Assembly: GCA_964016885.1 (NCBI GenBank)
Contig: CAXHJY010001736.1
Span: 38,793-102,792, forward strand
Direction: 5' to 3'
DNA: 64,000 nucleotides
From: Eledone cirrhosa
Taxonomy: Eukaryota
The position numbers and the translations under genes were made by a program. The stretch's first letter is position 1. Each line of letters starts with the position of its first letter. The notes beneath the pieces are model-generated. The model was not told the DNA's origin and searched no databases. It was given only the letters and a program-made list of their open reading frames with translations. Positions 7,426 to 59,988 of the stretch are shown piece after piece.

Positions 7426-8818
7426 TTGTCCTGGGTATGACATTAAACTACACCCAGTGGCAAGGCTCCAGTTCGGGAGTTCAGGAGATGTGGGGAATGT
7501 GGAGTTACCCCTTAGTTGTCATGACTCCCAGGTCTGCCCTGGCCCGGGGTGGTAGTACCTGTTAGGGCTCCATTTATGGGTTAAATAACTACCTTATTCG
7601 AGTGGCGCTGGTAAGGTATTGTCAGCCATTGAAAAGAAATATGGAGAGTCGATCTATCAGCACTAGGGTTAGAGCCCCTAATTACACTGTCAAGGAGCAG
7701 CCTGGTCGTTATGACTCTGCTGGCTTAGAGCCACAGAGAGGGCCAGTGGATGATGGATCAGCTGTCTCTGAGACAAATATAAAGAATGCAGTTTTGTCCT
7801 GCAGAAGAGCCATCAAAATGGGCACTTTGAATGTGAGGACTATTCGGACGCTGGAGAAGAGAGAGGAGTTGGGACAGAGCCCTTCACCAGAGAGGAGCTT
7901 CAGAGAGCCAAGAAGAGGATCAAGGAGGGCAAGGCTCATGGAGAAGATGGAGTGGCATCAGAGGTGATGAAGAGGTGTGATTTTGATGATATCATCCTGG
8001 GGTTCTGTAACGGGGCACTAGAGAAAGGAGTTGCCCCGAATCAGTGGGGGATCAGTAACATCGTCCCAGTGCCAAAGAAGGGAGATCTCTCTAACACCAA
8101 CAACTACCGGGGGATCTCACTGACGTCACTTGTGGAAAAGACCCTCAACAGGATGATTCTTAACAGGATCCAGCCTGAGATGGAGAAGAAGCTCAGGGAC
8201 AACCAGAACGGCTTCAGAGAGGGTAGATCAACCACCAGTCACATCCTGATGCTGAGGAAGATATTAGAGGGAGCTAGAGCAAAGTGCCTTCCTGCGGTCA
8301 TGGTTTTCATTGACTTTAGGAAGGCCTTTGATTCTGTGGACCGTTACTGCCTGATGAAGATCTTACAGACTTATGGAATCTCCAAGAAGATAGTGGACCT
8401 GATATCACTGCTCTACACCAACACCAAAGCCCAAGTCATTACACCTGATGGGATGACAGAGTTCTTTGAGATACTGGCTGGAGTGCTCCAGGGAGATACA
8501 TTGGCTCCCTACCTTTTTATCATCGTAGTGGACTATTGTATGCGCCTTGCACTGGAGAAACACCAGGACTCTGGCTTTACTGTACCACCGGCTCAGAGCA
8601 GGAGAGTTAGGGCGAAAAAGGTATCGGATACTGAATTTGCCGACGACATAGTTTTGGTGACAAATACAGTGAAGGAGGCAGAGGATTTGATGCGGGAGGT
8701 TGAGACTGTGTCGATGAGTGTGGGGCTGAGAATGAATGAGACTAAAACAAAATATCTGGTAGAGAATGTTGAGAAGCCAGAGGGGATCACTAATGTAGGC
8801 GGGAATCTGACCAACTAG
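7426..8818 (+). mobile_element. RTE-clade non-LTR retrotransposon: 5' UTR, APE N-terminus fused to RT by internal deletion, 3' truncated
   Basis: APE start MGTLNVRT, then RT motifs PVPKKGDL..NYRGISL, QNGFREGRST, FIDFRKAFDSV, GVLQGDTLAPYLF, EFADD, GLRMNETKTK. Confidence 0.92.
7952..8818 (+). pseudogene. Reverse transcriptase fragment of RTE LINE
   Basis: 288-aa open frame with non-LTR RT motifs; stops before thumb and C-terminus. Confidence 0.9.
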
Positions 8819-17483: not shown

Positions 17484-17551
17484 CTCCATTACCAAAGGTT
17501 TCAGGACCCTAGAAAATATTAACATATGTCTAGCTCGCTCATCAGATGAAA
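17484..17551 (-). ncRNA. Type I hammerhead ribozyme, family F
   Basis: tttcat-CTGATGA-gcgagCTAGA...TCTAGggtcct-GAAA-cc-ttt-ggt-A-atggag: GUA site, 3-nt-loop stem III, stem I extended by flanking inverted repeat 17456-17475 / 17556-17574. Confidence 0.75.
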
Positions 17552-20993: not shown

Positions 20994-21205
20994 AATTAGA
21001 AATATAAGCTTTCACCGTATTTTTTTACTAAAGAAATTTTTTAGCCTAATAGTGGGGTTTAGAACCCTCAGAGATATGGGAAAAGATGAGTGTTGACGTA
21101 CATGTACGTCAACACTCATCTTTTTCCATATCTCTGAGGGTTCTAAACCCCACTATCAGGCTAAAAAATTTCTTTAGTAAAAAATACGGTGAAAGCTTAT
21201 ATTTC

Positions 21206-21442: not shown

Positions 21443-21485
21443 ATCATAAATCTTTCGTTGCACATCTGCAACATCGTCAGTGGTG
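21443..21485 (-). ncRNA. Hammerhead ribozyme motif in Penelope 3' pseudo-LTR
   Basis: cacca-CTGACGA-tGTTGCAgatgTGCAAC-GAAA-gattt-A-tgat; about 240 nt downstream of the GIY-YIG stop, same strand; stem I weak. Confidence 0.75.
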
Positions 21486-21723: not shown

Positions 21724-22497
21724 TTATACTTCTCTTAGGTCAGTGGTGTTTATTTGGGTGTTGTTGTTATTCCATTCATTCTTTCTGTTTAGTCTCTTTA
21801 GTCTTCTAATTTCTATTTCACTGGCCTCTCTGATTTGCCTATCTGCTGGGTCATTTCTATGTTTAGATATTATTCTAATTTCTATGTTGTCTATGTTACC
21901 GTCATGTTGTTGTCTAGCATGTTCGTATAGTACTGACCCGTTTTTTCGTCCTTTTAGTTCCCCCCAGTGTTGGTCTATCCTTTCACCTATGCTACGAGCT
22001 GTCTCACCTATGTATGTTGTTGTCATGTTTCTGCAAGTACCCTCTGTACATCTTATGCTATAGACTACGTTTCTAGTTTTACAGTTTATCCGGGGGTTTA
22101 CCTTACATATGATACATTTCCTATTGGTACAGTGGGTTTTCTTAAAAGGGTAGGTTTTGCTGATCAGGGATTTTATGGTGGTTCCTGGCTTTTCTACCAC
22201 CTTAATTTTTAAGTGGGTCTTTCTCGGGGCCTTTCTACACTGGTTAGCTAATTTCCCTCCAGGGGTAGCGTCCACAAACATGACACTCTGGTATCTCTGG
22301 TTGTCGTACCATGAGGTGTCTTTCCCTATCTTATGTCTAGCCTTATCTAAGCTACTCCATGATTTGCTCCTCTATAATGGGCAAATTCCTTTCATGTCCA
22401 GTTCTATGAGGGTCTTATACTTTTCCATGGCTCCTTCGTATACTCTGACTCTGTCTCTTTGGTTGTAGCCAGAGAACTGCATGCGGTTGATGAAGTG
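21724..22497 (-). pseudogene. Penelope linker and GIY-YIG endonuclease
   Basis: ORF 21724-22281 plus upstream in-frame HFINRMQFSGY... Confidence 0.88.
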
Positions 22498-23142
22498 TTA
22501 GATGTGTCTTTCCATTTCTGTTGGGTCGCACATGCGGGACACATTCTTCATCACTCGTACCAAATCTGCGATCAGAATATTAAACTTAGCACTACTGGAC
22601 ATTGCTGAGTTTTTGAGTATCAGGTATTTGGAGGCCATGGGTTTAGCATAGTGTGAGTGGAGAATTTTGGCTCTCTCGTCTATAGTGTTAATCCAGAATT
22701 CTGTGTCTAATACAGGTAGTCTATTGTTAGGGTGTTTGGAAGGGAAGTCGATAGTTACAGTTATACTCTGGTGTATGGAATTAGCTATCTGCTGGATTTC
22801 TATTGTGCTAAGTTCTAAATCAAACTTGTTAGTGCTCTCTTGTGGGGATGTTCTTATAACTATATTGATATCGTCTACATAACGAGAGTACATGATGAGG
22901 TCTATGGAGCTCTCATTAAGGAGATCTTTAAGTCTCCTTTCCCACCACACCATGAAAAGGTTGGCAACATCACCAGCTATGCTGACGCCAATGGCTGCTC
23001 CCTCATTTTGGGTGTAGATCTTCTTGTTGAACTTAAATATGTGGCCCTTTAGGGTAGTTTTGATACTAGCCCCTATTGCATGTGCAACCATTTTTCTTAC
23101 CTGATCATTGTTTTGGAGGGTCCGTATAGCTTTGGTCCACAT
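22498..23142 (-). pseudogene. Penelope RT fragment
   Basis: 214-aa ORF with YVDD catalytic motif; reading continues past a frameshift into the linker. Confidence 0.9.
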
Positions 23143-23239
23143 TATTTAGTAAACCCCCCCCCCCCCCCGAAAGGGATGAAAATGTGAAGTTGACCTCGAC
23201 GGGAGTTGAACTCAGATCTCAGAGCTGAAACGAATACTA

Positions 23240-29833: not shown

Positions 29834-32390
29834 CTAGCTGTTTAGCCCGGCGTTGCTCGGGTTTGTTCATTTGCTATGAAAAGTTACATACAGGTAAACG
29901 TGGTTTGAAAGCGAATAAGCTTATCAATTAAGTGCATAAAGCAGTTGAACCGGTTATTAAAGGTTACGAACCAATTAGCATTTTGGTCAATCAATGATGG
30001 GTTAAAAATCTTCCAATAGCGAATTTAGTAGACCAAAGTTGCAAGATGGTGGCCCTGATGCCGCTGGGTGTCAGATCTGTCCGCCATGGAATACCCATCC
30101 AGGAAATAGTGTTCCAGATGGCATAGCTCCAACACCTGCACCAACATCTATAGCACCTCTTTGTAGACGATATTGCGTGTCATCTCTTAAGGAGAGTAAG
30201 CAAAAAGTCCATTCCTGCATAAAGTTGGCCATGGGAGAAGCATGGCTCCCCCAAATGGATGACCGCCACCGACAATGTTTGCCCTTGTGACTTGTTAATG
30301 GACATGGCAAAACATGGTCTCACCGGGAATTGGGAACGCCGGAAATCGAACGGAATATCTGATGCCGAGGGGAAAAGGTTCATCCTTGGAATGAAAACAT
30401 TCTCCCCTCTTCCACACCCGTTACAATGGTGGCCTCTATCAAGTGGGGTGTCAGTGACTTGATGACCATGCGAGTACCGTTGCAATGCTTTGGTGGACGC
30501 AAGTTCCTTATTAGCATAATGGGACAGCCAACCCTAAGCTTAATAATGTGAGGTGGGAGCCCTGGGGGCTCAAAGGGAATTTAATAACTCAACCGGATAA
30601 TTAACGATATCGTCGGGGTCTGACGTCCGGTCGATAGATTTGAAGATGTGCTCTTTACCGGGAATCTTCTCAATCAGCTGCTCGTTAATAAAATTAACCA
30701 TGGTATTTTACGGAGCAAGGATAGCTCTTTCGCTGAGCCAATCAAGGTTTTTAAAGTTAGATGAGACATTAGGAAAAACTGCTTTCCAAAGGTCAGAAGG
30801 GCTGCTCACAATGTAGCACAACGAGTCGATTGCTATGCCGTCCTTGTCATCCGCAGGGACCTTGCCCTCACCAAGTGCTAAAATATTCTGAGCAAATGCT
30901 GCAGACATGTTGTCACCATGCAAATGAGCACGCATATTTGTGCTCAGGTACAAACTCTCACCTGGAGCCACAAGATGGACGACTTAAGACAGGCACGAAC
31001 TTCATCAACTATTGTCCCTTTGGGGATGACAGGCAGCGTTTGCCGAAAATCCCCTAATAGCAGAAGGGTTACGCCACCCATAGGAGCCGTAGAATCCCTA
31101 ATGTCTTTCAGGGTCCTGTCCAATGCCTCAAGGGCACCCTTGAATGACTATCTGCACTCATCCCAAACAATGAGGCAACACTTTTTGAGAACCAGAGCTT
31201 TGTGTGAACTCTTGGTGATATTGCATGTTGGTCCGACAGAAGTTTGGGCTCATTTTCATCTAAGTATTGGGAAAGAGATTCGATATCATATGCTGTTTCC
31301 CGCAACAAATCCGGGGCCAACGTGTTAGCTTCCTCTCTGACGGTTGACGGCAAGCCATACGTCGTCAACTCACTCCCACCCATGTCGAGGTGGGCGTCCT
31401 CGATATCAATGAGTGCCCTGTTGTAGATAATGTCGCTGTAACCAACTTCCACTGAAGTATACTGCAGATGAGCCAGGCGCAGGAAGTCCTCATACATGAA
31501 GTCTCTGTACTTGACCCATAAAGATTTGGGATCACCCAATTAATATTTTTGAAGCAAAATGGCAAAGAGTTCCCGTAGACCTTTAGGTGATTTCAACAAA
31601 GCACCCTCTGTTAAAGTGGAATCCCATTGCGAATCATCTTCCAAAAGACCACGCTTAAAGCAGGCTTCCCGGTACATATCACATATTTCTCCATTAACAG
31701 TTTTGATGTCCTGAAAACTTTGTGGGCCTACAACTTCATGCAGAAGAAGGCGGAGATGAAAGCACTCATGCTGACTTGGGGACACAGTGTAAACCCTTCC
31801 AAGACAGCTGTCAAATTTTACGCCAGGATGTCTTTCAGCAGCCTGACCTGACTTTCTTCGCACCCAAGGGCATCAGAGCCCTTATTTACATATTTGCATA
31901 TGTATTTTATCGACTTGACGGAGTTGCAAAAGTCAACGTTGATGTGGGCGTTGAGCATCTTAAAGAGAAGCGGGCAGTAAGGGACCACCCATTTATTGTC
32001 GACTTGACCTCCCCTTACTGTTGTGGTGAAGCCACCGTTCTCGGGCCATCTCCACCTGTACAGGGGGTACCCGTCGCCACCAGTCTGAGTCTGGTCAACA
32101 AAATTTTGGGGGTATCCCTTACTGCACGACCCCCCCCCCCTTTTCAGACACGTGTGATGCTCATTAGGACCCGACGCACACGGACCATGAATCATGTTAC
32201 CTTTGACGATGTCATGTAATTCCTGGTCAGTTGCTGGGTTGGGGGTTTCAGCCGAAATGAAGCTGTCTATGGCACTTGAATTGATTTTATCAGCTAACCA
32301 AATCAAAATGTGAGCATGTGGCAGCCCTCGTTTTTGCCATTAGACGGTGAACATGTCACATTTTACAGCCCCAAATACCTGACCATCTGG
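29834..32390 (-). mobile_element. Helitron copy 1 (Rep motifs 2-3 plus Pif1-like helicase, decayed) with intact 3' terminus
   Basis: WQKRGLPHAHILIW (HUH), KYICKYVNKG, GDFRQTLPV, QFPVRPCFAMSINKSQGQTL..FSHGQLY; hairpin + CTAG end at 29834. Confidence 0.93.
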
Positions 32391-33212
32391 CAATGAGGTC
32401 ATGTCTGTTCGAATAATTCTGCCCAGGAAAAAGTTCACGCGTTACATTCTGATTCATATGTCTATAGCATTAATCTGTTATATGAAGTGTTATTTTGTGG
32501 GTTATAATTTGCAATAAGCCGATTGAAAATGCCCCAGATAAGCCGTATGTCAATACGTAAATAAGGGCTCTGATGCCGCAATGTTCGCATTTCAAGCTGA
32601 AAACAGCAAGGACGAGGTCACAGAATACCTGGCGGGGCGGTACATCAGTAGCAATGAAACTTTTTGACGCCTATTTGGTTTACCCCTACACCAACGTCAC
32701 CCCGCCATCGTACAGCTTGCGGTACATTTGGAAAATGGGCAAAGGGTTTACTTTACGGACCAAACCGCCGCCAAGTTGGCCGCCGATCCGAAAGAGACCA
32801 CTCTGACGGGTTTCTTCAAACTTTGCCAGTTCGATACATTTGCGCAAACAATTGTGTACTCCCAGGTTCCATCCTACTTTATATGGTCGAAAAACACTTG
32901 GGTGCGAAGAAAGTCAGGTCAGGCTGCCGAAAGACATCCTGGTGTAAAATTTGACAACTGTCTTGGAAGGGTTTACACTGTGTCCCCAAGTCAGCATGAG
33001 TGCTTTCATCTCCGCCTTCTTCTGCATGAAGTTGTAGGCCCACAAAGTTTTCAGGACATCAAAACTGTTAATGGAGAAATATGTGATACGTACCGGGAAG
33101 CCTGCTTTTGGAAGATGATTCGCAATGGGATTCCACTTTAGCAAAGGGTGCTTTATTGAAATCACCTAAAGGTCTACGGGAACTCTTTGCTATTTTGCTT
33201 CAAAAATGTTAA

Positions 33213-34292
33213 TTGGGTGATCCCAAATCTTTATGGGTCAAGTACAGAGATTTCATGTCTGAGGACTTCCTGCGCCTGGCTCATCTGCAGTATACTTCAT
33301 TGGAAGTTGGTTACAGCGACATTATCTATAACAGGGCACTCATTGATATCGAGGACGCCCACCTCGACATGGGTGGGAGTGAGTTGGCGACGTATGGCTT
33401 GCCGTCAACCGTCAGAGAGGAAGCTAACACGTTGGCCCCGGATTTGTTGCGGGAAACAGCATATGACACAGAATCTCTTTCCCAATACTTAGAGGAAAAT
33501 GAGCCCAAACTTCTGTCGGACCAAAGGTTGGCCTATTTAACTATCATTGACGCGGTTCAAAATCAGACTGGGGGTATTTACTTTCCGGATGCTCCTGGGG
33601 GTACTGGAAAAAGTTATGTAACGAAATTGATTCTCGTTAAGATTCTTCAGAAGAAAAAAGTTACGTTGTCCGTTGCATCGTCCGGGATCGCTGCTACTTT
33701 GCTCCCGGGAGGCAGGACAGCACATTCAACCTTTAAACTCCCCTTGCATTTAGTAAAAACTGAGACACCAACATGCAATATCACCAAGAGTTCACACAAA
33801 GCTCTAGTTCTCAAAAAGTGTTGCCTCATTGTTTGGGATGAGTGCACAATGGCACTCAAGGGTTCCCTTGAGGCATTGGACAAGACCCTGAAAGACATTA
33901 GGGATTCTACGGCTCCTATGGGTGGCGTAACCCTTCTGCTATCAGGGGATTTTCGGCAAACGCTGCCTGTCATCCCCAAAGGGACAAGAGCTGATGAAGT
34001 TCGTGCCTGTCTTAAGTCGTCCATCTTGTGGCTCCAGGTGAAGAGTTTGTACCTGAGCACAAATATGCGTGCTCATTTGCATGGTGACAACATGTCTGCA
34101 GCATTTGCTCAGAATATTTTAGCACTTGTTGAGGGCAAGGTCCCTGCGGATGACAAGGGCGGCATAGCAATCGACTCGTTGTGCAACATTGTGAGCAGCC
34201 CTTCTGACCTTTGGAAAGCAGTTTTTCTTAATGTCTCATCTAACTTTAAAAACCTTGATTGGCTCAGCAAAAGAGCCATCCTTGCTCCGTAA
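33213..34292 (+). pseudogene. Helitron Pif1-family helicase fragment
   Basis: 359-aa ORF with SF1 helicase motifs I-IV; premature stop. Confidence 0.9.
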
Positions 34293-34454
34293 AATACCAT
34301 GGTTAATTTTATTAAGGAGCAGCTGATTGAGAAGATTTCCGGTAAAGAGCACATCTTCAAATCTATCAACCGGACGTCAGACCCCGACGATATTGTTAAT
34401 TATCCGGTTGAGTTATTAAATTCGCCTGAGCCCCCAAGGCTCCCACCTCACATT

Positions 34455-34460
34455 ATATAT

Positions 34461-34517
<57 letters not shown>

Positions 34518-34838
34518 TATCCATATATACATATCTATCTATCTAAGGCGGGTAAAATTCCCGAGATCCATGGACGAGTTCTCTCCAGCGGTCTCTGTCC
34601 CTGTTAGGACTCCATTTATGGGTTAAATAACTACCTTATTCGAGTGGCGCCGGTAAGGTATTGTCAGCCATTGAAAAGAAAAAAATATATACATATATAT
34701 ACATATATATATATACATATACATATATATACATATATATATACATATACGTATATATACATATATATATATATACATATACGTATCCCAGTAATGCACT
34801 GGGTAATTGCTGGCCTTGTGCCTAAAGTAGAAACAATT
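34455..34838. mobile_element. Composite insertion in Helitron helicase: (TA)n + inverted RTE 3' end + RTE 5' UTR piece + (TA)n + SINE tail
   Basis: 34546-34600 is the reverse complement of 54545-54600; 34601-34680 matches 7559-7640; 34787-34838 is a SINE 3' end; copy 1 is uninterrupted here. Confidence 0.85.
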
Positions 34839-35572
34839 ATTAAGCTTAGGGTTGGCCGTCCCATTATGCTAATAAGGAACTTGCGTCCACCAAAGCATTG
34901 CAACGGTACTCGCATGGTCGTCAAGTCACTGACACCCCACTTGATTGAGGCCACCATTGTAACGGGGGTGCGGAAGAGGGGAGAATGTTTTCATTCCAAG
35001 GATGAACCTTTTCCCCTCGGCGTCAGATATCCAGTTCGATTTCCGGCGATCCCAATTCCCGGTGAGACCATGTTTTGCCATGTTCATTAACAAGTCACAA
35101 GGGCAATCATTGTCGGTGGCGGGTATCCATTTGGGGGAGCAACTTTATGTTGCCTGTTCCCGCGTAGGGAGCAGGAATGGACTTTTTGCTTACACTCCTC
35201 AAGGGATGACACGCAATATCGTCTACAAAGAGGTGCTATAGATGTTGATGCAGGTGTTGGAACTATGCCGTCTGGAAAACTGGTAGGGTCACCCATAGCG
35301 GACAGATCTGACACCCAGCGGGATCAGGGCCACCATCTTGCAACTTTGGTCTACTAAATTCGCTATTGGAAGATTATTAACCCATCATTGGGTCCAAAAT
35401 GCTAATTGGTTCGTAACTATTAATAACCGGTTCAACTGCTTTATGTACTTAATTGATAAGCTGATGCGCTTTCAAGCTACGTTTACCTGTTTGTAACTTT
35501 TCATAGCAAATGAACAAACCCGAGCAACGCCGGGCTAAACTGCTAGTATATATATATATATGTATAAACACA

Positions 35573-43631: not shown

Positions 43632-43680
<49 letters not shown>

Positions 43681-43686
<6 letters not shown>

Positions 43687-43815
43687 AGATCAAAAGATGG
43701 TTAAAGGAGTTCCATGTATTTTATTATGCGCATTTAAAAAACAAACATGTTTGTTTTTGAAATGCGCATAATAAAATACATGGAACTCCTTTAACCATCT
43801 TTTGATCTTATATTA
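43681..43815. repeat. ~134-bp spacerless palindrome in (TA)n containing the 3' half of an HHR
   Basis: Centre aaaCATGttt; right arm GAAA-TGCGCAT-A-ATAAAATA. Confidence 0.88.
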
Positions 43816-43929
43816 TGTATACTCCAGTCCTACAAATTGTAGAGTGCTTCTTATCCGATATCTGCATTGCTTTATTGTACTACAATAAAACTCACCTCCT
43901 ACATTATATATATATATATATATATATGG

Positions 43930-44366
43930 AGAGCTTATATTTAATTTCTTGGGATTCAACAAGCTTAAAAATGTTTATAACTGATATAAAGCACTCAACG
44001 ATTTAGTGGGTTAAATACATAATATATTAATAAATGGAAACTATATTTATAAAACCATATTTATTTTATTATATATATTTCAAGGGTGACCAAGGTAAAT
44101 TATGGCGCGCTTTCATCAGATAAAATACAGATTTGTTTTATAAATAAATATTGACATACCCGGAAAAAAGACAACCCCAACGGTCGAAATATCCAGCAAA
44201 TTTCGACCGTCGAGGTTGTCTTTTTTCCGGGTATGTCAATATTTATTTATAAAACAAATCTGTATTTTATCTGATGCAAGCGCACCATAATTTACCTTGG
44301 TCGCCCTTGAAATATATATAATAAAATAAATATGGTTTTATAAATATAGTTTCCATTTATTAATAT

Positions 44367-44369
<3 letters not shown>
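43930..44369. mobile_element. Family C HHR element as fold-back: 170-bp arms (44021-44190 / 44200-44369), one HHR per arm, ~90-bp extra tail on left arm
   Basis: TATTTTAT-CTGATGA-stem II-GAAA-TATATAT-A-ATAAAATA on minus (~44057-44128) and plus (44263-44328, core variant CTGATGC). Confidence 0.88.
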
Positions 44370-44426
<57 letters not shown>

Positions 44427-44533
44427 TAGAAGTTGTATTTAATTTGTTGGAAGTCCGACAAACTATCCAGTGAATTTCCAACCGATAAGGTATGATTTTT
44501 ATGGGTACGTCTTTATTTATAAAACAAACTTTG

Positions 44534-44598
44534 TATTTTATCTGATGAAAGCGTACCAATGTTGTCTTGGTCGCCCTTGAAATATATATAATAAAATA
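44534..44598 (+). ncRNA. Type I hammerhead ribozyme, family C
   Basis: tattttat-CTGATGA-aagcgtacca...tggtcgccctt-GAAA-tatatat-A-ataaaata; 8-bp stem I. Confidence 0.8.
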
Positions 44599-44710
44599 GA
44601 TATGGTTTTATAAATATAGTTTCCATTTATTTAATATCATTGTATATATATATATCTCGTATATATAAAAGGAGGAAGTTATAGTTCACTTGAAGCATTG
44701 TGTAATGAAG

Positions 44711-45044
44711 TATAAACGTTTGTATTTATAAAGCCAAAACAATGCAGGTATGGATATAGAATATAAATGCAAATGCAAAAGATATTGTTGACAATTAGTC
44801 TTTTACCTTAAATTTATTTAAATATCCTTAATTTTCGAGATAATATCTCTTCTTCGGCAAGCTATTTAGAACGGAGGTTTAACCACTTTACTTCCCTCCG
44901 AAGAAGAGATATTATCTCGAAAATTAAGGATATTTAAATAAATTTAAGGTAAAAGACTAATTGTCAACAATATCTTTTGCATTTGCATTTATATTCTATA
45001 TCCATACCTGCATTGTTTTGGCTTTACAAATACAAACGTTTATA
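44711..45044. repeat. Fold-back with 147-bp arms and 40-bp spacer; HHR-like motif at the inner end (44895-44929)
   Basis: cct-CCGAAGA-aGAGATattATCTC-GAAA-att-A-agg (core U4 replaced by C). Confidence 0.85.
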
Positions 45045-45050
45045 TATATA

Positions 45051-45154
45051 TACATTTAAAATATATGATAAACACGAAATGTGTTTATATTAATAGCTAA
45101 CTTTGTCTGTTGCAATATAAACACATTTCGTGTTTATCATATATTTTAAATGTA
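45051..45154. repeat. Fold-back with 41-bp arms and ~21-bp spacer next to (TA)n
   Basis: tacatttaaa...gtttatatt / aatataaac...tttaaatgta. Confidence 0.85.
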
Positions 45155-45254
45155 TTTAACTGCTCGGAAGAGCCCCTTCCTGGAGCTTAATTATTGTAAA
45201 CGACTGAGAGTTTATTCTCAAAATATAATATAATATATATATATATATTAGTTT

Positions 45255-45640
45255 AATCAGAGTGTGGGCTTGTCTATAGTTAACCTTTAACCACCTGAGA
45301 TCTGGTCTGAAGTGTGGGTTTGTGTATAGTTTAACCTTTGGCCACATGAGATCTGGTCTAAAGTGTGGGCTTTGTCTATAGTTTAACCTTTGACCACCCG
45401 AGATCTAGTCTGGAGTGTGGGCTTGTGTATCTTTAACCTTTGATCACATGAGATCTGGTCTGAAGTGTGGGGTTGTCCCTTTACCATCCGAGATTTAGTC
45501 TAGAGGCTATGGTTGTGTCTAAGGCCTTACTTTAACCCCATATCCCCGAAAAGTTGGCCTGGAGTGTGGCGTTATATCTATGGGCTTTTATTTTACTCTG
45601 TATCCCCAAGATATGGTCTGAGACCTGGTCTGGAATAAAA
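45255..45640. repeat. Degenerate ~52-bp tandem repeat (gagatctggtctgaagtgtggg...)
   Basis: About 7 diverged copies. Confidence 0.75.
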
Positions 45641-45759
45641 GGGTCCGCTAAGTTTTATATCTGGAATTTGTAGATCCACCAAGGTCTAATCTGGAGGAAG
45701 GGACTGAGCCCATAGCTTTTGAAGGACCACCATGACTTAGTGTGGTTGATGTGGTTAAT

Positions 45760-48350
45760 GTTGGTAGTGGTGGCAGTAGTGGTGATAATGGTGGTGATGA
45801 GGGTAATGAGAATAGTGGTCGTGGTGGTAATGGTAGTGGTGGTAATGGTAGTGGTGTTAATGGTAGTGGTGGTAATATGGTGGTAGTGGTGGTGGTAGTA
45901 ATGGTAGTGGTGGTAATGGTAGTGGTGGTAATGGCAGTGGTGGTAATGGTGGTGGTAGTAATGGTAGTGGTAGTAATGGTAGTGGTGGTAATGGTAGTGG
46001 TGGTAGTGGTGGTGGTAATGGTAGTGGTGGTAATGTTGGTGTTGGTAGTGGTGGTAATGGTAGTGGTGTTAATGGTAGTGGTGGTAGTGGTGTTAATGGT
46101 AGTGGTGGTAGTGGTAGTGGTAGTAATGGTAGTGGTGTTGGTGGTAGTGGTAGTATTGGTAGTGGTGTTAATGGTAGTGGTGGTAATGGTGGTGGTAGTA
46201 GTGGTAATGGAAGAGATGGTGGTGATGGTAATAGTGGTGGTGGTGGTGGGGGTAATAGAAGAGGTGGTGGTAATGGTGATAGCGATGCTGGTGGTGATAG
46301 TAATGGTAGTGGTGGTGGTAATGGTGGGAGTAATGAGAATGGTGGTGGTAGTAATGGTAGTGGTGGTAGTGGTAGTGGTGGTCATGCTGGCAAAGGTCAG
46401 TCACACAGTTCTCTCAAATCAGTTCTCTCAAATCCCCCCACCCACTCACTACCATGAACCAACCCTCACATACCCCGCCACCTACATACCCCCGCCACCC
46501 ACATAACCCCACACATACCCACCACACACCACAACATATATACCCTCCTCTCCACCCACATAACCCCACATATACACACCACACACCACAACATACCCCG
46601 CCACCCACAAACCCCCCGTCATCCACATAACCCCACACACCACAACATACCCAAGCCCCCCCATACCCCCGCCACCCACATAACCCCACACATACACACC
46701 ACACACCACAACATACCCCGCCACCCACAAACCCCCCGCCACCCACATAACCCCACACATACCCACCACACACCACAACATACCCAATCCCCCCATACCC
46801 CCCCCCCCGCGCCATCCACATAACCCCACACATACCCACCACACACACCCAAGCCCCCCATACCCCTCCGCCACCCACATAACCCCACACATACCCACCA
46901 CACACCACAACAGACCCCCCAAAAAATTATTAGATCATAGTTTATTATGTAATTGTTTTCATGGAATTTGATAATCCGGCATGTTGATTGTTATTGTCGT
47001 TTGTATGTCCAGGGAGTGGCGGTGGTGGTGGTGGTGGTGGTGGTGGCGGTGGTGTTGATGGTGGTGGTGGCGGTGGTGTTGATGGTGGTGGTGGTGGTGG
47101 TGGTGTTGATGGTGGTGGTGGTGGTGTTGATGGTAGTGTTGATGATGGTGGTGGCGGTGTTGGTGGTGGTGTTGATGATGGTGGTGGTGGTGGTGGCGGT
47201 GTTGGTGGTGGTGTTGTTGACGGTGGTGGTGTTGGTGTTGATGGTGGTGGTGATGGTGTTGATGGTGGTGATGGTGTTGATGATGATGGTGGTGGTGGTG
47301 TTGGTGGTGGTGTTGATGGTGGTGGTGTTGATGGTGGTAGTGGTGGTGGTGTTGATGGTGGTGGTGATGGTGTTGATGGTGGTGGTGGTGGTGGTGGTGT
47401 TGATGATGGTGTTGATGATGGTGGTGGTGGTGTTGATGATGGTGGTGATGGTGTTGATGGGTGTGTGGTGTTGATGATGGTAGTGGTGGTGGTGTTGATG
47501 GTGCTGGTGGTGTTGATGGTGCTGGTGGTGTTGGTGGTGTTGATGATGGTGGTGTTGATGGTGGTGTTGGTGGTGGTGGTGATGGTGTTGATGGTGGTGG
47601 TGGTGGTGGTGTTGATGATGGTGGTGTTGGTGGTGTTGATGGTGGTGGTGGTGGTGTTGATGGTGGTGGTGGTGTTGATGGTGGTGGTGCTGGTGGTGAT
47701 GTTGGTGGCGGTGGTGTTGATGATGGTGTTGATGGTGGTGGTGGTGGTGTTGATGGTGGTGGTGGTGTTGATGGTGGTGGTGCTGGTGGTGATGGTGGTG
47801 GTGGTGGTGTTGATGGTGGTGGTGGTGTTGATGATGGTGGTGGTGGTGGTGGTGGTGTTGATGATGGTGGTGATGGTGTTGATGGGTGTGTGGTGTTGAT
47901 GATGGTGGTGCTGGTGGTGGTGGTGGTGGTGTTGGTGGTGTTGATGGTGGTGGTGCTGGTGGTGTTGATGGTGGTGTGGTGTTGATGATGATGGTGGTGG
48001 TGTTGATGGTGGTGGTGGTGGTGGTGGTGGTGTTGATGATGGTGGTGATGGTGTTGATGGGTGTGTGGTGTTGATGATGGTGGTGCTGGTGGTGTTGGTG
48101 GTGGTGGTGGTGTTGGTGGTGTTGATGGTGGTGGTGCTGGTGGTGTTGATGGTGGTGTGGTGTTGATGATGATGGTGGTGGTGTTGATGGTGGTGGTGGT
48201 GGTGCTGGTGGTGTTGATTGTGGTGATGTTGATGATGATGATGGTGGTGTTGATGGTGGTGGTGGTGATGGTGGCCAAAGTGATGGTAGTGGTGGTGGTG
48301 ATGCTAAGAATGGTGATCGTGATGATGATGGTGAGGATGATGATGATGAT
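45760..48350. repeat. (GGT/GAT)n-derived low-complexity blocks with an intervening CCA-rich minisatellite (46450-46915)
   Basis: Direct reading. Confidence 0.92.
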
Positions 48351-48611
48351 AATATATACATATATATATCTATACTTACATATCTATGTATATATACATA
48401 TATAAATCTATGTATATATATACATATATAAATCTATGTATATATATACATATATAAATCTATGTATATATACATATGTAGATAAATCTACCAAGAGTTT
48501 ACGGTAGTGTCCAATCCGTATGAAGAACTCAATGTATTCCGGATATCATGGAAAGAAGAGATGTAATGAAAAACCACTTTCGGTGAAAGATAAACGGTAT
48601 ACAGAGTCAAG

Positions 48612-49029
48612 ATAAAATATTAAACAAATAATGAATAAACAATTCCTTATATTAAACAAAAAAAGTTCATTATTTAACGATCGTTTCTAGGGTATATATG
48701 TGTTATAATTGGTATGCATATTCAACAGATCTATGTACAAAATTATACAAGATTATACAAATTATCAAGATTAAATATACATACCAAACACATATATACG
48801 CCGTCTTCAGAAATATTATTCAGATTATTTCTGAAGACGGCGTATATATGTGTTTGGTATGTATATTTAATCTTGATAATTTGTATAATCTTGTATAATT
48901 TTGTACATAGATCTGTTGAATATGCATACCAATTATAACACATATATACCCTAGAAACGATCGTTAAATAATGAACTTTTTTTGTTTAATATAAGGAATT
49001 GTTTATTCATTATTTGTTTAATATTTTAT
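48612..49029. repeat. 418-bp fold-back (204-bp arms, 10-bp spacer) holding two opposed HHRs with a very long stem II
   Basis: Plus HHR 48824-48972: attattt-CTGAAGA-[~116 nt]-GAAA-CGATCGT-T-aaataat; mirror copy 48669-48815. Confidence 0.9.
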
Positions 49030-49181
49030 ATATACATATATATCTATGTAATGAATTCAATGATATTAAATAAATGGAAACTATATTTATAAAATACAAA
49101 ATGTTATATACATATATATATATATGTATATATATATACATATATATATATACATATATATATATGTGTATATATATATAC

Positions 49182-49225
<44 letters not shown>

Positions 49226-50345
49226 CTATATACATAGATATATATACGTATATATATATATATCTATGTATATATATATCTATATACATAGATATATATG
49301 TATATATATACATAGATATAGATATATATACATAGATATATATGTATATATACATAGATATATATGTATATATATGTATATATACATAGATTTATATATG
49401 TATGTATACATAGGTTTGTAAATGTATATATACATAGATTTATATGTATATATACATAGATTTATATATGTATATATTGTATATATACATAGATACATAA
49501 GTATATATACACACCTTACCGCTGCATTAAGCGTGGCCGAAACTCGAGTCCGGGAATAAGTATAGGCACCCGTTTTACGTGTTGTATTGAAGCGAATAAC
49601 TGTGTGTATACTCTGGGAATGTATCTTACATTACCTATTGAGTACGCTGAGATACAACCGCTCCTGGCATTGATAAATGTGGTGGGTCTGTCAACTCCTT
49701 AGTAATGGATTGGCAGTATCGGTAGAAGGTCGACGCCATGCTTTGACGTATAGAGTTATGGTCCTTGCCATTCTCAGTTCAGATCCCGCCGAGGTTAACT
49801 TTGCCTTTTATGCTTACGGGATCGATAAAATAAAGTACCAGTAATACACTGGTTTATTTATTGCTGGCCTTGTACTAAAACTAGAAACAATTATTAAATA
49901 TATAGCCCCGTTTTTTCCTCATGTGCTTTTTCATAAATACACATGAAGGCGAACTAGCCAGTTTTAGAATTCCCTTTTTCGGACTATATTACTGTGAGAG
50001 CCCTGGTTTTCTGTTGAGCTCTGCTGATGAATGATATTCCAACCGTGACCATCTCCACTGAAAGTTTTCATGAAATAGTCTTTTAAGACTATACAGAGCA
50101 TTTGATGTTATTCCAAATTGAAGGATAAGTGTTTCAAACTTTGTTTTATCATGAGTTAAAGGTCTATAGATTTTTCCATGGATTTTACTAAATTCTGTGG
50201 ATGAATTTGTATCCTGATTCTCTTTTGAGATGAGTTTGAGTTATTTTTCCTAAATCTTTCGTTAACTACTTTTCCCATCTTGACGTTATAGTCGCATATA
50301 TGTTATAGAATGCCGTTAGCTTCTTGCTAAAACAATCTCTATACG

Positions 50346-50411
<66 letters not shown>

Positions 50412-50412
<1 letters not shown>

Positions 50413-50622
50413 AAAGTTTTATTTAAAATTGTTGGGTTACAACAAGTAAATATTTTATAACTGATATAAAGCACTCGACAAGTTTTGGAGTAGATATACG
50501 ATATTAAACAAATGGAAACTATATTTATAAAACCATATTTATTTCATAATATGGTATCCACGAAATATGTATAATGAAATAAATATGCTTTTATAAATAT
50601 AGTTTCCATTTGTTTAATATCG

Positions 50623-50624
<2 letters not shown>
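50412..50624. mobile_element. Family C fold-back (arms ~50496-50549 / 50571-50624) with HHR 3' half and left tail
   Basis: cGAAAtatgtatAatgaaata; tail tataactgatataaagcactc shared with 43975-44000. Confidence 0.8.
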
Positions 50625-50656
<32 letters not shown>

Positions 50657-50820
50657 TAACAGATTAAAGTTTAAGCAAAGAATCGCTGCTTTCACCCTTA
50701 ACGGGATCTTCTGATATATTTGATATATAGTTATGCTTATCGAGCCCTCTTTGGATTTTAGTCTTCAAATTTATTATAATTACTATATATATATATATAC
50801 ATATATGCTGAACTTCCATT

Positions 50821-50854
<34 letters not shown>

Positions 50855-50856
50855 TC

Positions 50857-50991
50857 AAATATTAACAAAAATAGATATTCTTGTGATCAATTAAATTTTG
50901 TTATACATATTTCAGTACTTAATTCAGTACCTCTGAAATATGTATAATAAAATTTAATTGATCACAAGAATATCTATTTTTGTTAATATTT
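50857..50991. repeat. Fold-back with 59-bp arms and HHR 3' half
   Basis: ctGAAAtatgtatAataaaat at the start of the right arm; similar to 58570-58635. Confidence 0.8.
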
Positions 50992-51189
50992 CAATTAATA
51001 TTAATAACTCTTGAAAATATTTTTTAGTAGAGTGTTTCCAATCTACTGTAAAACTCATTCTTTGATATACTCATTGAATCTTGTTTAACTCTTTACCTCG
51101 GATAGACAGATAGAGAAAGCAGATAATGAACCCCCCCCCCCTCTCTCTCTTTACCTCAGATAGATAGATACATAGATAGAAAGTAAGGG

Positions 51190-58614: not shown

Positions 58615-58680
58615 TATTTTATTATATATATTTCGGAGGTAGTGTGCTGTTTCCTCAGTACGTCCTCATCAGATAAAATA
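58615..58680 (-). ncRNA. Type I hammerhead ribozyme (family C-related)
   Basis: tattttat-CTGATGA-GGAcgtaCTGaggaaaCAGcacactaccTCC-GAAA-tatatat-A-ataaaata. Confidence 0.82.
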
Positions 58681-59690: not shown

Positions 59691-59691
<1 letters not shown>

Positions 59692-59854
59692 AGAAAGTAT
59701 GATCCCGACGGCAGAGCTCAAGCCGTTTCGACGTCGAAACGGCTTGAGCTCTGCCGTCGGGGTCATACTTTCTCCTTTTACTCACTCTACTACCCTAAGT
59801 ATTGAGTACTCTGGTGCGTTATGGTCCATCTGGTTCCTTACCACAACTCCTCCG

Positions 59855-59910: not shown

Positions 59911-59988
59911 AATTACCTTGTCTGACGAACGAATGCGGACGTTTCTTGTATTCGTCTCATTCGGGAAACCTCTGGTAATGAGGTAATT
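59911..59988 (+). ncRNA. Type I hammerhead ribozyme, family F, intact core
   Basis: aattaccttgt-CTGACGA-aCGAATGcgGACG..CGTCtCATTCGg-GAAA-cc-tct-ggt-A-atgaggtaatt; outer inverted repeat 59887-59907 / 59997-60017. Confidence 0.85.

Follow-up and report, generated by a model that had tools for sequence, protein, structure and literature searches.

Endonuclease-bearing (EN+) Penelope-like elements (PLEs) are known to carry an inverted pseudo-long terminal repeat (pseudo-LTR) with an optional tail (PMC3846280, PMC8557442). Minimal hammerhead ribozymes (HHRs) of the dimer type were described in metazoan PLEs, and opposite-strand HHR pairs 100-700 bp apart were recorded in the same work (Cervera and de la Pena 2014, PMC4209133). 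An internal promoter was described for a PLE (PMC2377424). How the tandem and inverted structures and the tails arise is listed as an open question by PMC8557442 and PMC2377424. For a PLE of the anole, Poseidon, both target strands were cut and extended in vitro, two start sites of the reverse transcriptase (RT) bracketed the tail and HHR cleavage was dispensable (Frangieh et al. 2024, PMC11167929). A retrozyme preprint (10.64898/2026.07.22.740005) adds nothing about inversions. The subject of this work is a cluster of palindromes built from PLE ends in a 64,000-nt stretch of the Eledone cirrhosa genome (assembly GCA_964016885.1, 3.0 Gb in 1,796 contigs; contig CAXHJY010001736.1, positions 38,793-102,792, forward strand). 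The whole stretch is referred to as the window and is numbered from its first base.

Seven near-perfect inverted repeats were present in 7.3 kb of the window, as originally predicted (43674-43821, 44021-44369, 44711-45044, 45050-45155, 48612-49029, 50494-50627 and 50851-50997). The arms are 42-204 nt long with 0-5 mismatches, and the spacers measure 0-40 nt; 20 shuffles of the 7.5-kb segment gave none. A (TA)n tract directly adjoins one end of all seven. The original prediction was right in describing them as PLE insertions with extreme 5' truncation, set in (TA)n and bearing minimal hammerheads. Each is a head-to-head pair of pseudo-LTRs truncated at the 5' end, and six PLE families are represented: 44021 and 50494 belong to family A, 43674 to B, 44711 to C, 45050 to D, 48612 to E and 50851 to F. 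A family-specific tail, overlooked by the original prediction, is found on one arm only in all seven. The inverted 5'-truncated 5' copy, the one-end tail, the junction palindromes, the (TA)n targets and an initiator-like pseudo-LTR motif (TCACT in PMC3846280) are shared with the known inverted-pseudo-LTR PLEs (PMC3846280, PMC8557442); here, however, most insertions consist of two stubs only, and the tails measure 41-135 nt compared with 30-40 nt there. The structure is already known; the evidence presented here on its formation was not found in the literature searched.

Palindromes of this class numbered 17 per 200 kb (19 with a looser complexity filter) in a background sample of 20 evenly picked 10-kb chromosome stretches, and are therefore common. 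The density of the cluster is about 11-fold higher (Poisson P 4e-6), a value to be read with the window selected post hoc for palindromes and the background clumped (0-4 per 10 kb). The window is AT-rich and packed with microsatellites, and three further inverted repeats lie elsewhere in it (932-998, 21021-21184 and 59691-59774). The clustering itself is left unexplained, because (TA)n density in the cluster is not raised above background (2.1 vs 2.3 tracts per kb).

In each family the 3' ends fall at two fixed places, termed site 1 and site 2, which are 41-135 nt apart in families A-E. Head-to-head pairs of families A, B, C, E and F were collected at sampled loci and duplicated junctions were collapsed; the family A loci were 60 of about the first 100 matches listed (L031-L060, L081-L120). 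This gave 92 unique pairs, 82 of them classifiable and 10 unclear. One tailed and one untailed arm were found in 81 of the 82; a single pair carried two tails and none lacked a tail (P 3e-23 against 50:50). The seven palindromes of the window conform as well. Family D was kept out of this count because tandem arrays blur its ends. The tailed arm was tail-only in 16 of the 81 pairs and had almost no sequence in common with its partner; fold-back of one cDNA on itself therefore cannot be the source of these pairs. Divergence between the two arms of a pair is 3-12 times lower than that between arms from separate insertions, in a comparison of pairs ascertained at no more than 10% mismatch. The junctions of the 92 pairs comprised 35 overlaps, 9 blunt joints, 33 inserts of 1-10 nt and 15 longer inserts.

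The upstream ends of the arms, given as negative or positive distances from the predicted HHR cut at 0, pile up at -133 in family A, -124 in B, -141 in E and -115 in F. Within -3 to +8 of these stops lay 31 of 74 arms in A (6.0 expected), 24 of 37 in B (3.0), 20 of 33 in E (2.3) and 15 of 32 in F (2.9); search matches biased to long arms were excluded from the end counts. Arms starting exactly at the stop with a non-native base before it, counted afterwards genome-wide, numbered 393 in A, 4,231 in B and 674 in E, against 3,590, 10,029 and 1,676 matches to the respective 3'-end patterns, and 58 of the 60 A and B loci that were read from these counts were true junctions. The context of the stop is YC/A in all four families (CC/ACTAT, TC/ATATG, TC/ATTAT and TC/ACTAC; the slash marks the stop), which resembles the initiator consensus; a by-eye search for a downstream promoter element gave none that we would claim. 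The base before the stop was G in 46 (A), 45 (B) and 23 (E) of the first 100 rows listed (hand count), against flank backgrounds of 18%, 14.7% and 15.8%, respectively; control junctions carried G in 22 of 94 cases (19.1 expected). The excess is strong in A and B.

We read these palindromes as products of twin priming on one RNA, with most cDNAs running off at a likely capped start, and give this reading a probability of about 0.68. The endonuclease of the element would cut both strands of an AT-rich (TA)n target, consistent with the TA adjacency seen here. One strand would prime at RT start site 1 and the other at site 2, each strand using one of the two observed 3' ends, and the intervening stretch would become the tail. 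Both cDNAs would head toward the 5' end of the RNA, 170-205 nt from site 1, at the initiator-like YC/A, where the cDNA end would often gain a base opposite the cap. PLE RT is not known to have RNase H, which would permit two copyings of one RNA. A site-2 cDNA blocked early would leave a tail-only arm, and one that copies through, either with strand displacement or from another RNA of the same origin, would produce a palindrome. The cDNA ends would be joined by microhomology or end joining, in keeping with the overlaps and short inserts found at the junctions. From the stop, the hammerhead is 5-85 nt further downstream, so turns land in the HHR if it adjoins the stop or if copying terminates early.

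Long insertions, chosen by hand as opposite-strand matches 2.7-7.5 kb apart, fit into the same scheme. Both outer arms extend beyond the stop in all 16, and both primers therefore seem to have sat on the same repeat copy of the RNA; the 3' repeat copy seems to yield long arms and a copy near the RNA 5' end stubs. A more specific proposal, tentative at this stage, is that ordered twin priming with one site per strand on capped sense RNA gives paired strong-stop cDNAs, and that the stop-to-tail stubs, which would retain both RT start sites as well as the internal promoter, can themselves be transcribed and re-copied as non-autonomous units of 240-340 nt. In the original model of L1 twin priming the second primer anneals anywhere internally and the segments do not overlap; here, by contrast, both sites are fixed and the arms usually overlap, which gives palindromes. 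Two primed target ends, an inverted microhomology joint and an extra 5' G, which marks capped templates for L1, are common to both systems (PMC11702581). Anole Poseidon is alike in the cutting and extension of both strands, in the two sites that bracket the tail and in needing no HHR cleavage; a difference between the strands in start site is unreported there, whereas each insertion here has one of each, and the genome here also shows where the cDNAs end (PMC11167929).

An alternative that retains twin priming would place a structural barrier, or the end of a processed uncapped RNA, at the stop instead of a capped start. We infer the transcript start from the stop, and in family E, where the G excess is weak, this stop falls in stem I, part of a very stable hairpin (z -6.5). 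A small hairpin also occurs just inside the family A stop, and all nine oriented copies of a further family, I, which has a compact type I hammerhead, start 0-12 nt before the C-box (CUGANGA). Against a barrier, four unrelated families share the YC/A context, A and B show a strong excess of G, and RT arriving from the 3' side would hit the family E hairpin about 130 nt ahead of the stop. On balance, this alternative is unlikely.

In the literature, head-to-head PLE palindromes are explained by self-priming on an antisense template (Arkhipova et al. 2013). This mechanism was proposed from palindromes at inverted junctions (PMC3846280), and the near-identity of the arms of a pair agrees with it. 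Self-priming does not, however, predict a sense-strand initiator with an extra G at the turn, nor a strict rule of one tail per pair, nor 16 tail-only pairs; the quantified one-tail rule, the stop and the extra G point instead to a sense capped template, and we regard self-priming as very unlikely for this genome.

The original prediction had RT stalling at the folded ribozyme, followed by fold-back of the cDNA or a template switch, and thus a ribozyme-centred palindrome generator. Five of the seven turns in the window do fall inside an HHR, as mapped on family references with the motifs checked by hand and by script: 43674 turns in the loop/stem II, 44711 at the C-box, 48612 in stem I, 50494 in stem II/III and 50851 in stem II. 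The turn of 44021-44369 is upstream of the HHR as claimed, at a measured 71 nt from the C-box instead of about 65 nt, and the 45050 palindrome is of family D, without an HHR core. In sampled fold-back-like pairs (at least 40 nt shared, spacer up to 45), however, the turn lay in the HHR in only 5 of 44 cases outside family E (A 1/12, B 2/15, C 1/6, F 1/11). It did so in 11 of 11 cases in family E, because a stem II of about 115 nt puts the stop inside stem I. The longer arm ended no more than 15 nt from the stop in 11/12 (A), 11/15 (B), 10/11 (F) and 10/11 (E) pairs. Arms that fell short of the stop ended in the HHR in 28 of 73 cases vs 39 expected, and are thus not enriched there.

In family B, the HHR cut site is the start of 38 arms and the upstream initiator-like stop that of 4,231, with a cut-site pattern that misses ends preceded by A; 6 of 24 unique cut-site loci that were read are point changes in read-through copies. 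On these counts HHR-cut RNA is rejected as the main template of family B; in family C it may have that role. Families D and G, which are without an HHR, form the same palindromes. A fold-back copy cannot hold tail sequence that is missing from the first cDNA, and fold-back cannot yield 81 of 82 one-tail pairs or 16 pairs with barely overlapping arms. Short stops do correlate between the arms of a pair (5 of 16 no more than 20 nt apart, against a permutation mean of 1.8; P 0.02), as stalling would have it, but two copyings of a single broken RNA would be expected to give the same just as well; the small clusters of arm ends at HHR edges given below also speak for stalling. As the main route the stall model is largely refuted, and we rate its chances as very poor; a minority ribozyme-stall class may exist, and it is likely that the palindromes carry the ribozyme as a passenger and are not caused by it.

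An artefact of assembly or of chimeric reads is scarcely credible: the contig is a 103-kb unplaced piece and the bin 44863-44874 is uncovered at 99%, but the arms carry private mutations, the one-tail rule and fixed stops hold, the same forms occur on large contigs, and short-read contigs show other head-to-head joints, one of them between 44160 and 44230 in three runs of a single sample. Short-read contigs and restriction-site-associated DNA reads, fragmented over repeats, contained no record bridging any of the palindrome centres in the window among those listed and are uninformative on the locus; no allelic copy or empty site was found among 40 scored of 8,763 candidates.

Several points weigh against twin priming from a capped start. 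The sharp stop and the G excess are what is observed, and the transcript start and cap are what they would imply. The stops were chosen from the same samples in which they were later tested. Sampled loci needed an exact pattern match, which favours young copies, and came mostly from contig C1; extra B, C and E loci were hand-picked toward short or single matches. The G excess is weak in E (23/100; 6/24 unique loci, P 0.17) and in F (1/4). For untemplated bases only, G accounted for 21 of 54 at the stop and, in the control junctions, for 17 of 54 non-C bases, the latter value being inflated by exclusion of the native base. Family C is without a single clear stop, and the ends of family D are scattered; the 12 family D pairs comprised four with one tail, four with two tails and four that were unclear. 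Small clusters of arm ends occur at HHR edges, at -58 to -61 in A (8/93 arms), -22 to -31 in B (5/60) and 0 to +11 in C (6/45). The window is also enriched for HHR turns compared with its own families (4/5 vs 5/44, Fisher P 0.003, post hoc), an excess that is unexplained beyond chance and selection.

Flanking DNA (1.48 Mb with overlaps) contained 205 unique palindromes. The most common other palindrome family was G (28/93), to which the window repeat 59691-59774 and many loci, L066, L080 and L462 among them, belong; of its 28 placed turns, 21 fall between 12 nt ahead of and 19 nt past an initiator-like site, and no C-box is visible. Turns of families H and I fall in an HHR-like motif because their stop abuts that motif. 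A family H pair lies within the cluster (50652-50790), with a minus-strand arm from the variant box CAGAAGA and an inverted tail-like partner; the initiator-like site of this family is 5 nt before the CAGAAGA box. Family I (loci L014, L150, L177, L181, L257, L291 and L462) is the best candidate for a ribozyme-edge stop. A palindromic mobile unit, resembling a miniature inverted-repeat transposable element, was ruled out, since the centres vary between copies; family E has one recurrent centre, which is the product expected of a short overlap at the stop.

Exact matches to the 3'-end patterns numbered 3,590 for family A, 10,029 for B, 2,862 for C, 189 for D, 1,676 for E and 35 for F genome-wide. 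Long copies tie families A, B, C and E to open reading frames (ORFs) with RT and GIY-YIG, the ORF content of EN+ PLEs. The family A ORF (locus L082) matched GIY-YIG at E 3e-4, under the curated cut-off; the 821-aa frame of family B (L451) had no Pfam match; the family C ORF (L454) matched RVT_1 at 2e-14 and GIY-YIG at 2e-5; and RT and GIY-YIG frames of family E were found at loci L459 and L460. Families D and F share the PLE end anatomy, D as a tandem unit of about 555 bp without an ORF. The pseudo-LTRs are direct or inverted with a tail at one end, as is typical of PLEs. The layout at L082 is (TA)n, inverted tailed pseudo-LTR, direct truncated pseudo-LTR, tail, ORF, 3' untranslated region, pseudo-LTR and (TA)n. 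At another family A locus, L117 (C1:86129500-86137000), an inverted duplication of several kb holds two family A pairs around another PLE ORF.

Judged from their translations, families A, B and E carry the motifs of the Hydra clade (Craig et al. 2021; PMC8557442, section 11), namely DKT, a CxCX5C linker, no CCHH, plus GIY-YIG at the C terminus. HHRs and (TA)n targets are likewise common to the clade and to A, B and E, as is the RW motif in A and B; the third residue of RWK differs here (RWR in A, RWT in B). Family C represents a clade other than Hydra, because it has DKG and two cysteines within GIY-YIG.

Families A, B, E and F have both core boxes (CUGANGA and GAAA) and stem II, the anatomy of the minimal PLE hammerhead, with a stem I of 8, 8, 10 and 7 bp, respectively, and 8 of 8 nt of helix III self-complementary. 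The core is missing in D and degenerate in C. Type I topology, palindromic helix III and long helix II are shared with the described PLE hammerheads, self-cleavage here being predicted; the family E hammerhead (48831-48965) differs in its stem II of about 115 nt and in a U at the cleavage position, kept across copies, and that of family C in its CCGAAGA box and 3-bp stem I (PMC4209133). Rfam at gathering and E-value thresholds reported no hammerhead family, only miRNA-like hairpin noise, and free-energy folding did not recover the hammerhead fold for most motifs; the stems were verified directly instead. Six of 45 family C arms start 0 to +11 past the cut predicted for the variant motif, which hints that the CCGAAGA variant may cleave; an 8-nt palindrome at this position is an alternative cause. 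Other hammerhead-like cores from PLE-like ends occur at 112-135, 1030-1070, 17499-17545, 58631-58672 (-) and 59922-59968 (+).

The arms of the cluster were mapped as follows. The 43674 palindrome consists of an untailed family B arm (43674-43747, -) that spans element positions -24 to site 1 by family mapping and has (TA)n directly to its left, and, across a zero-spacer centre, a tailed arm (43748-43903, +) with the 3' half of the HHR, GAAA at 43759-43762 and the predicted cut after 43770. A family A arm with a tail of about 90 nt follows (43930-44190, -; to -121), with an intact HHR core at 44119-44078, and is joined to an untailed arm (44190-44375, +) that starts at -131, 2 nt inside the family stop, and has a point change in the C-box at 44271. 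An extra family A pair, absent from the original prediction, was located by family mapping at 44426-44647 (+); its first piece is a diverged inverted tail-only stretch (44426-44461, read by eye), and its arm starts exactly at the -133 stop (44462) and contains an HHR core at 44542-44582.

The family C pair is made up of an arm with a tail of about 41 nt that starts at the variant C-box CCGAAGA (44670-44857, -) and an untailed arm from -71 (44856-45044, +) with a degenerate HHR-like motif at 44898-44926. In the family D pair, an untailed arm (45050-45091, -) of the non-autonomous tandem unit meets an arm with a tail of about 82 nt (45089-45234, +). The family E palindrome has an arm with a tail of about 135 nt (48477-48815, -; to -139) and an untailed arm (48824-49029, +) that starts exactly at the -141 stop, preceded by G, with its C-box at 48831 and GAAA at 48954. 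An older family A pair comprises a tailed arm that starts near the predicted HHR cut, at -5 (50409-50552, -), and an untailed arm from -12, probably -26 in a diverged subfamily (50562-50627, +). The family F pair is formed by an untailed arm to -14 (50851-50915, -) and a tailed arm from -28 (50919-51023, +), the tail of which may extend beyond the reference.

Among the neighbouring features, 49903-50335 belongs to a very young non-autonomous unit of about 629 bp that ends in (TA)n (8,763 candidates, top matches 99-100% identical); its copies are direct partial tandems, with an inverted arm in 0 of 9 loci read. The zero-spacer palindrome 21021-21184 adjoins broken PLE RT and GIY-YIG frames at 21724-23145 (-), and a hammerhead-like core lies nearby (21453-21480). 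Broken frames at 31818-35090 (+) resemble what we take to be a Helitron Rep/helicase, and a 348-aa frame at 7772-8818 (+) is presumably an RTE-type reverse transcriptase.

A fixed stop, an extra G and a strict one-tail rule were not found in the PLE literature searched, which included few subscription papers and no supplements. With thousands of young copies per family in one genome, base-level predictions can be made, namely a single start site per strand, run-off at a mapped initiator and a cap-derived G. The hammerheads of PLEs are argued here to be mostly uncut passengers at insertion, and insertions of this kind to be a large source of long genomic palindromes. If the more specific proposal of ordered priming with one site per strand is true, PLEs would be a ribozyme-independent palindrome factory, responsible by extrapolation from 17 per 200 kb for about 250,000 fold-backs in the 3-Gb genome.

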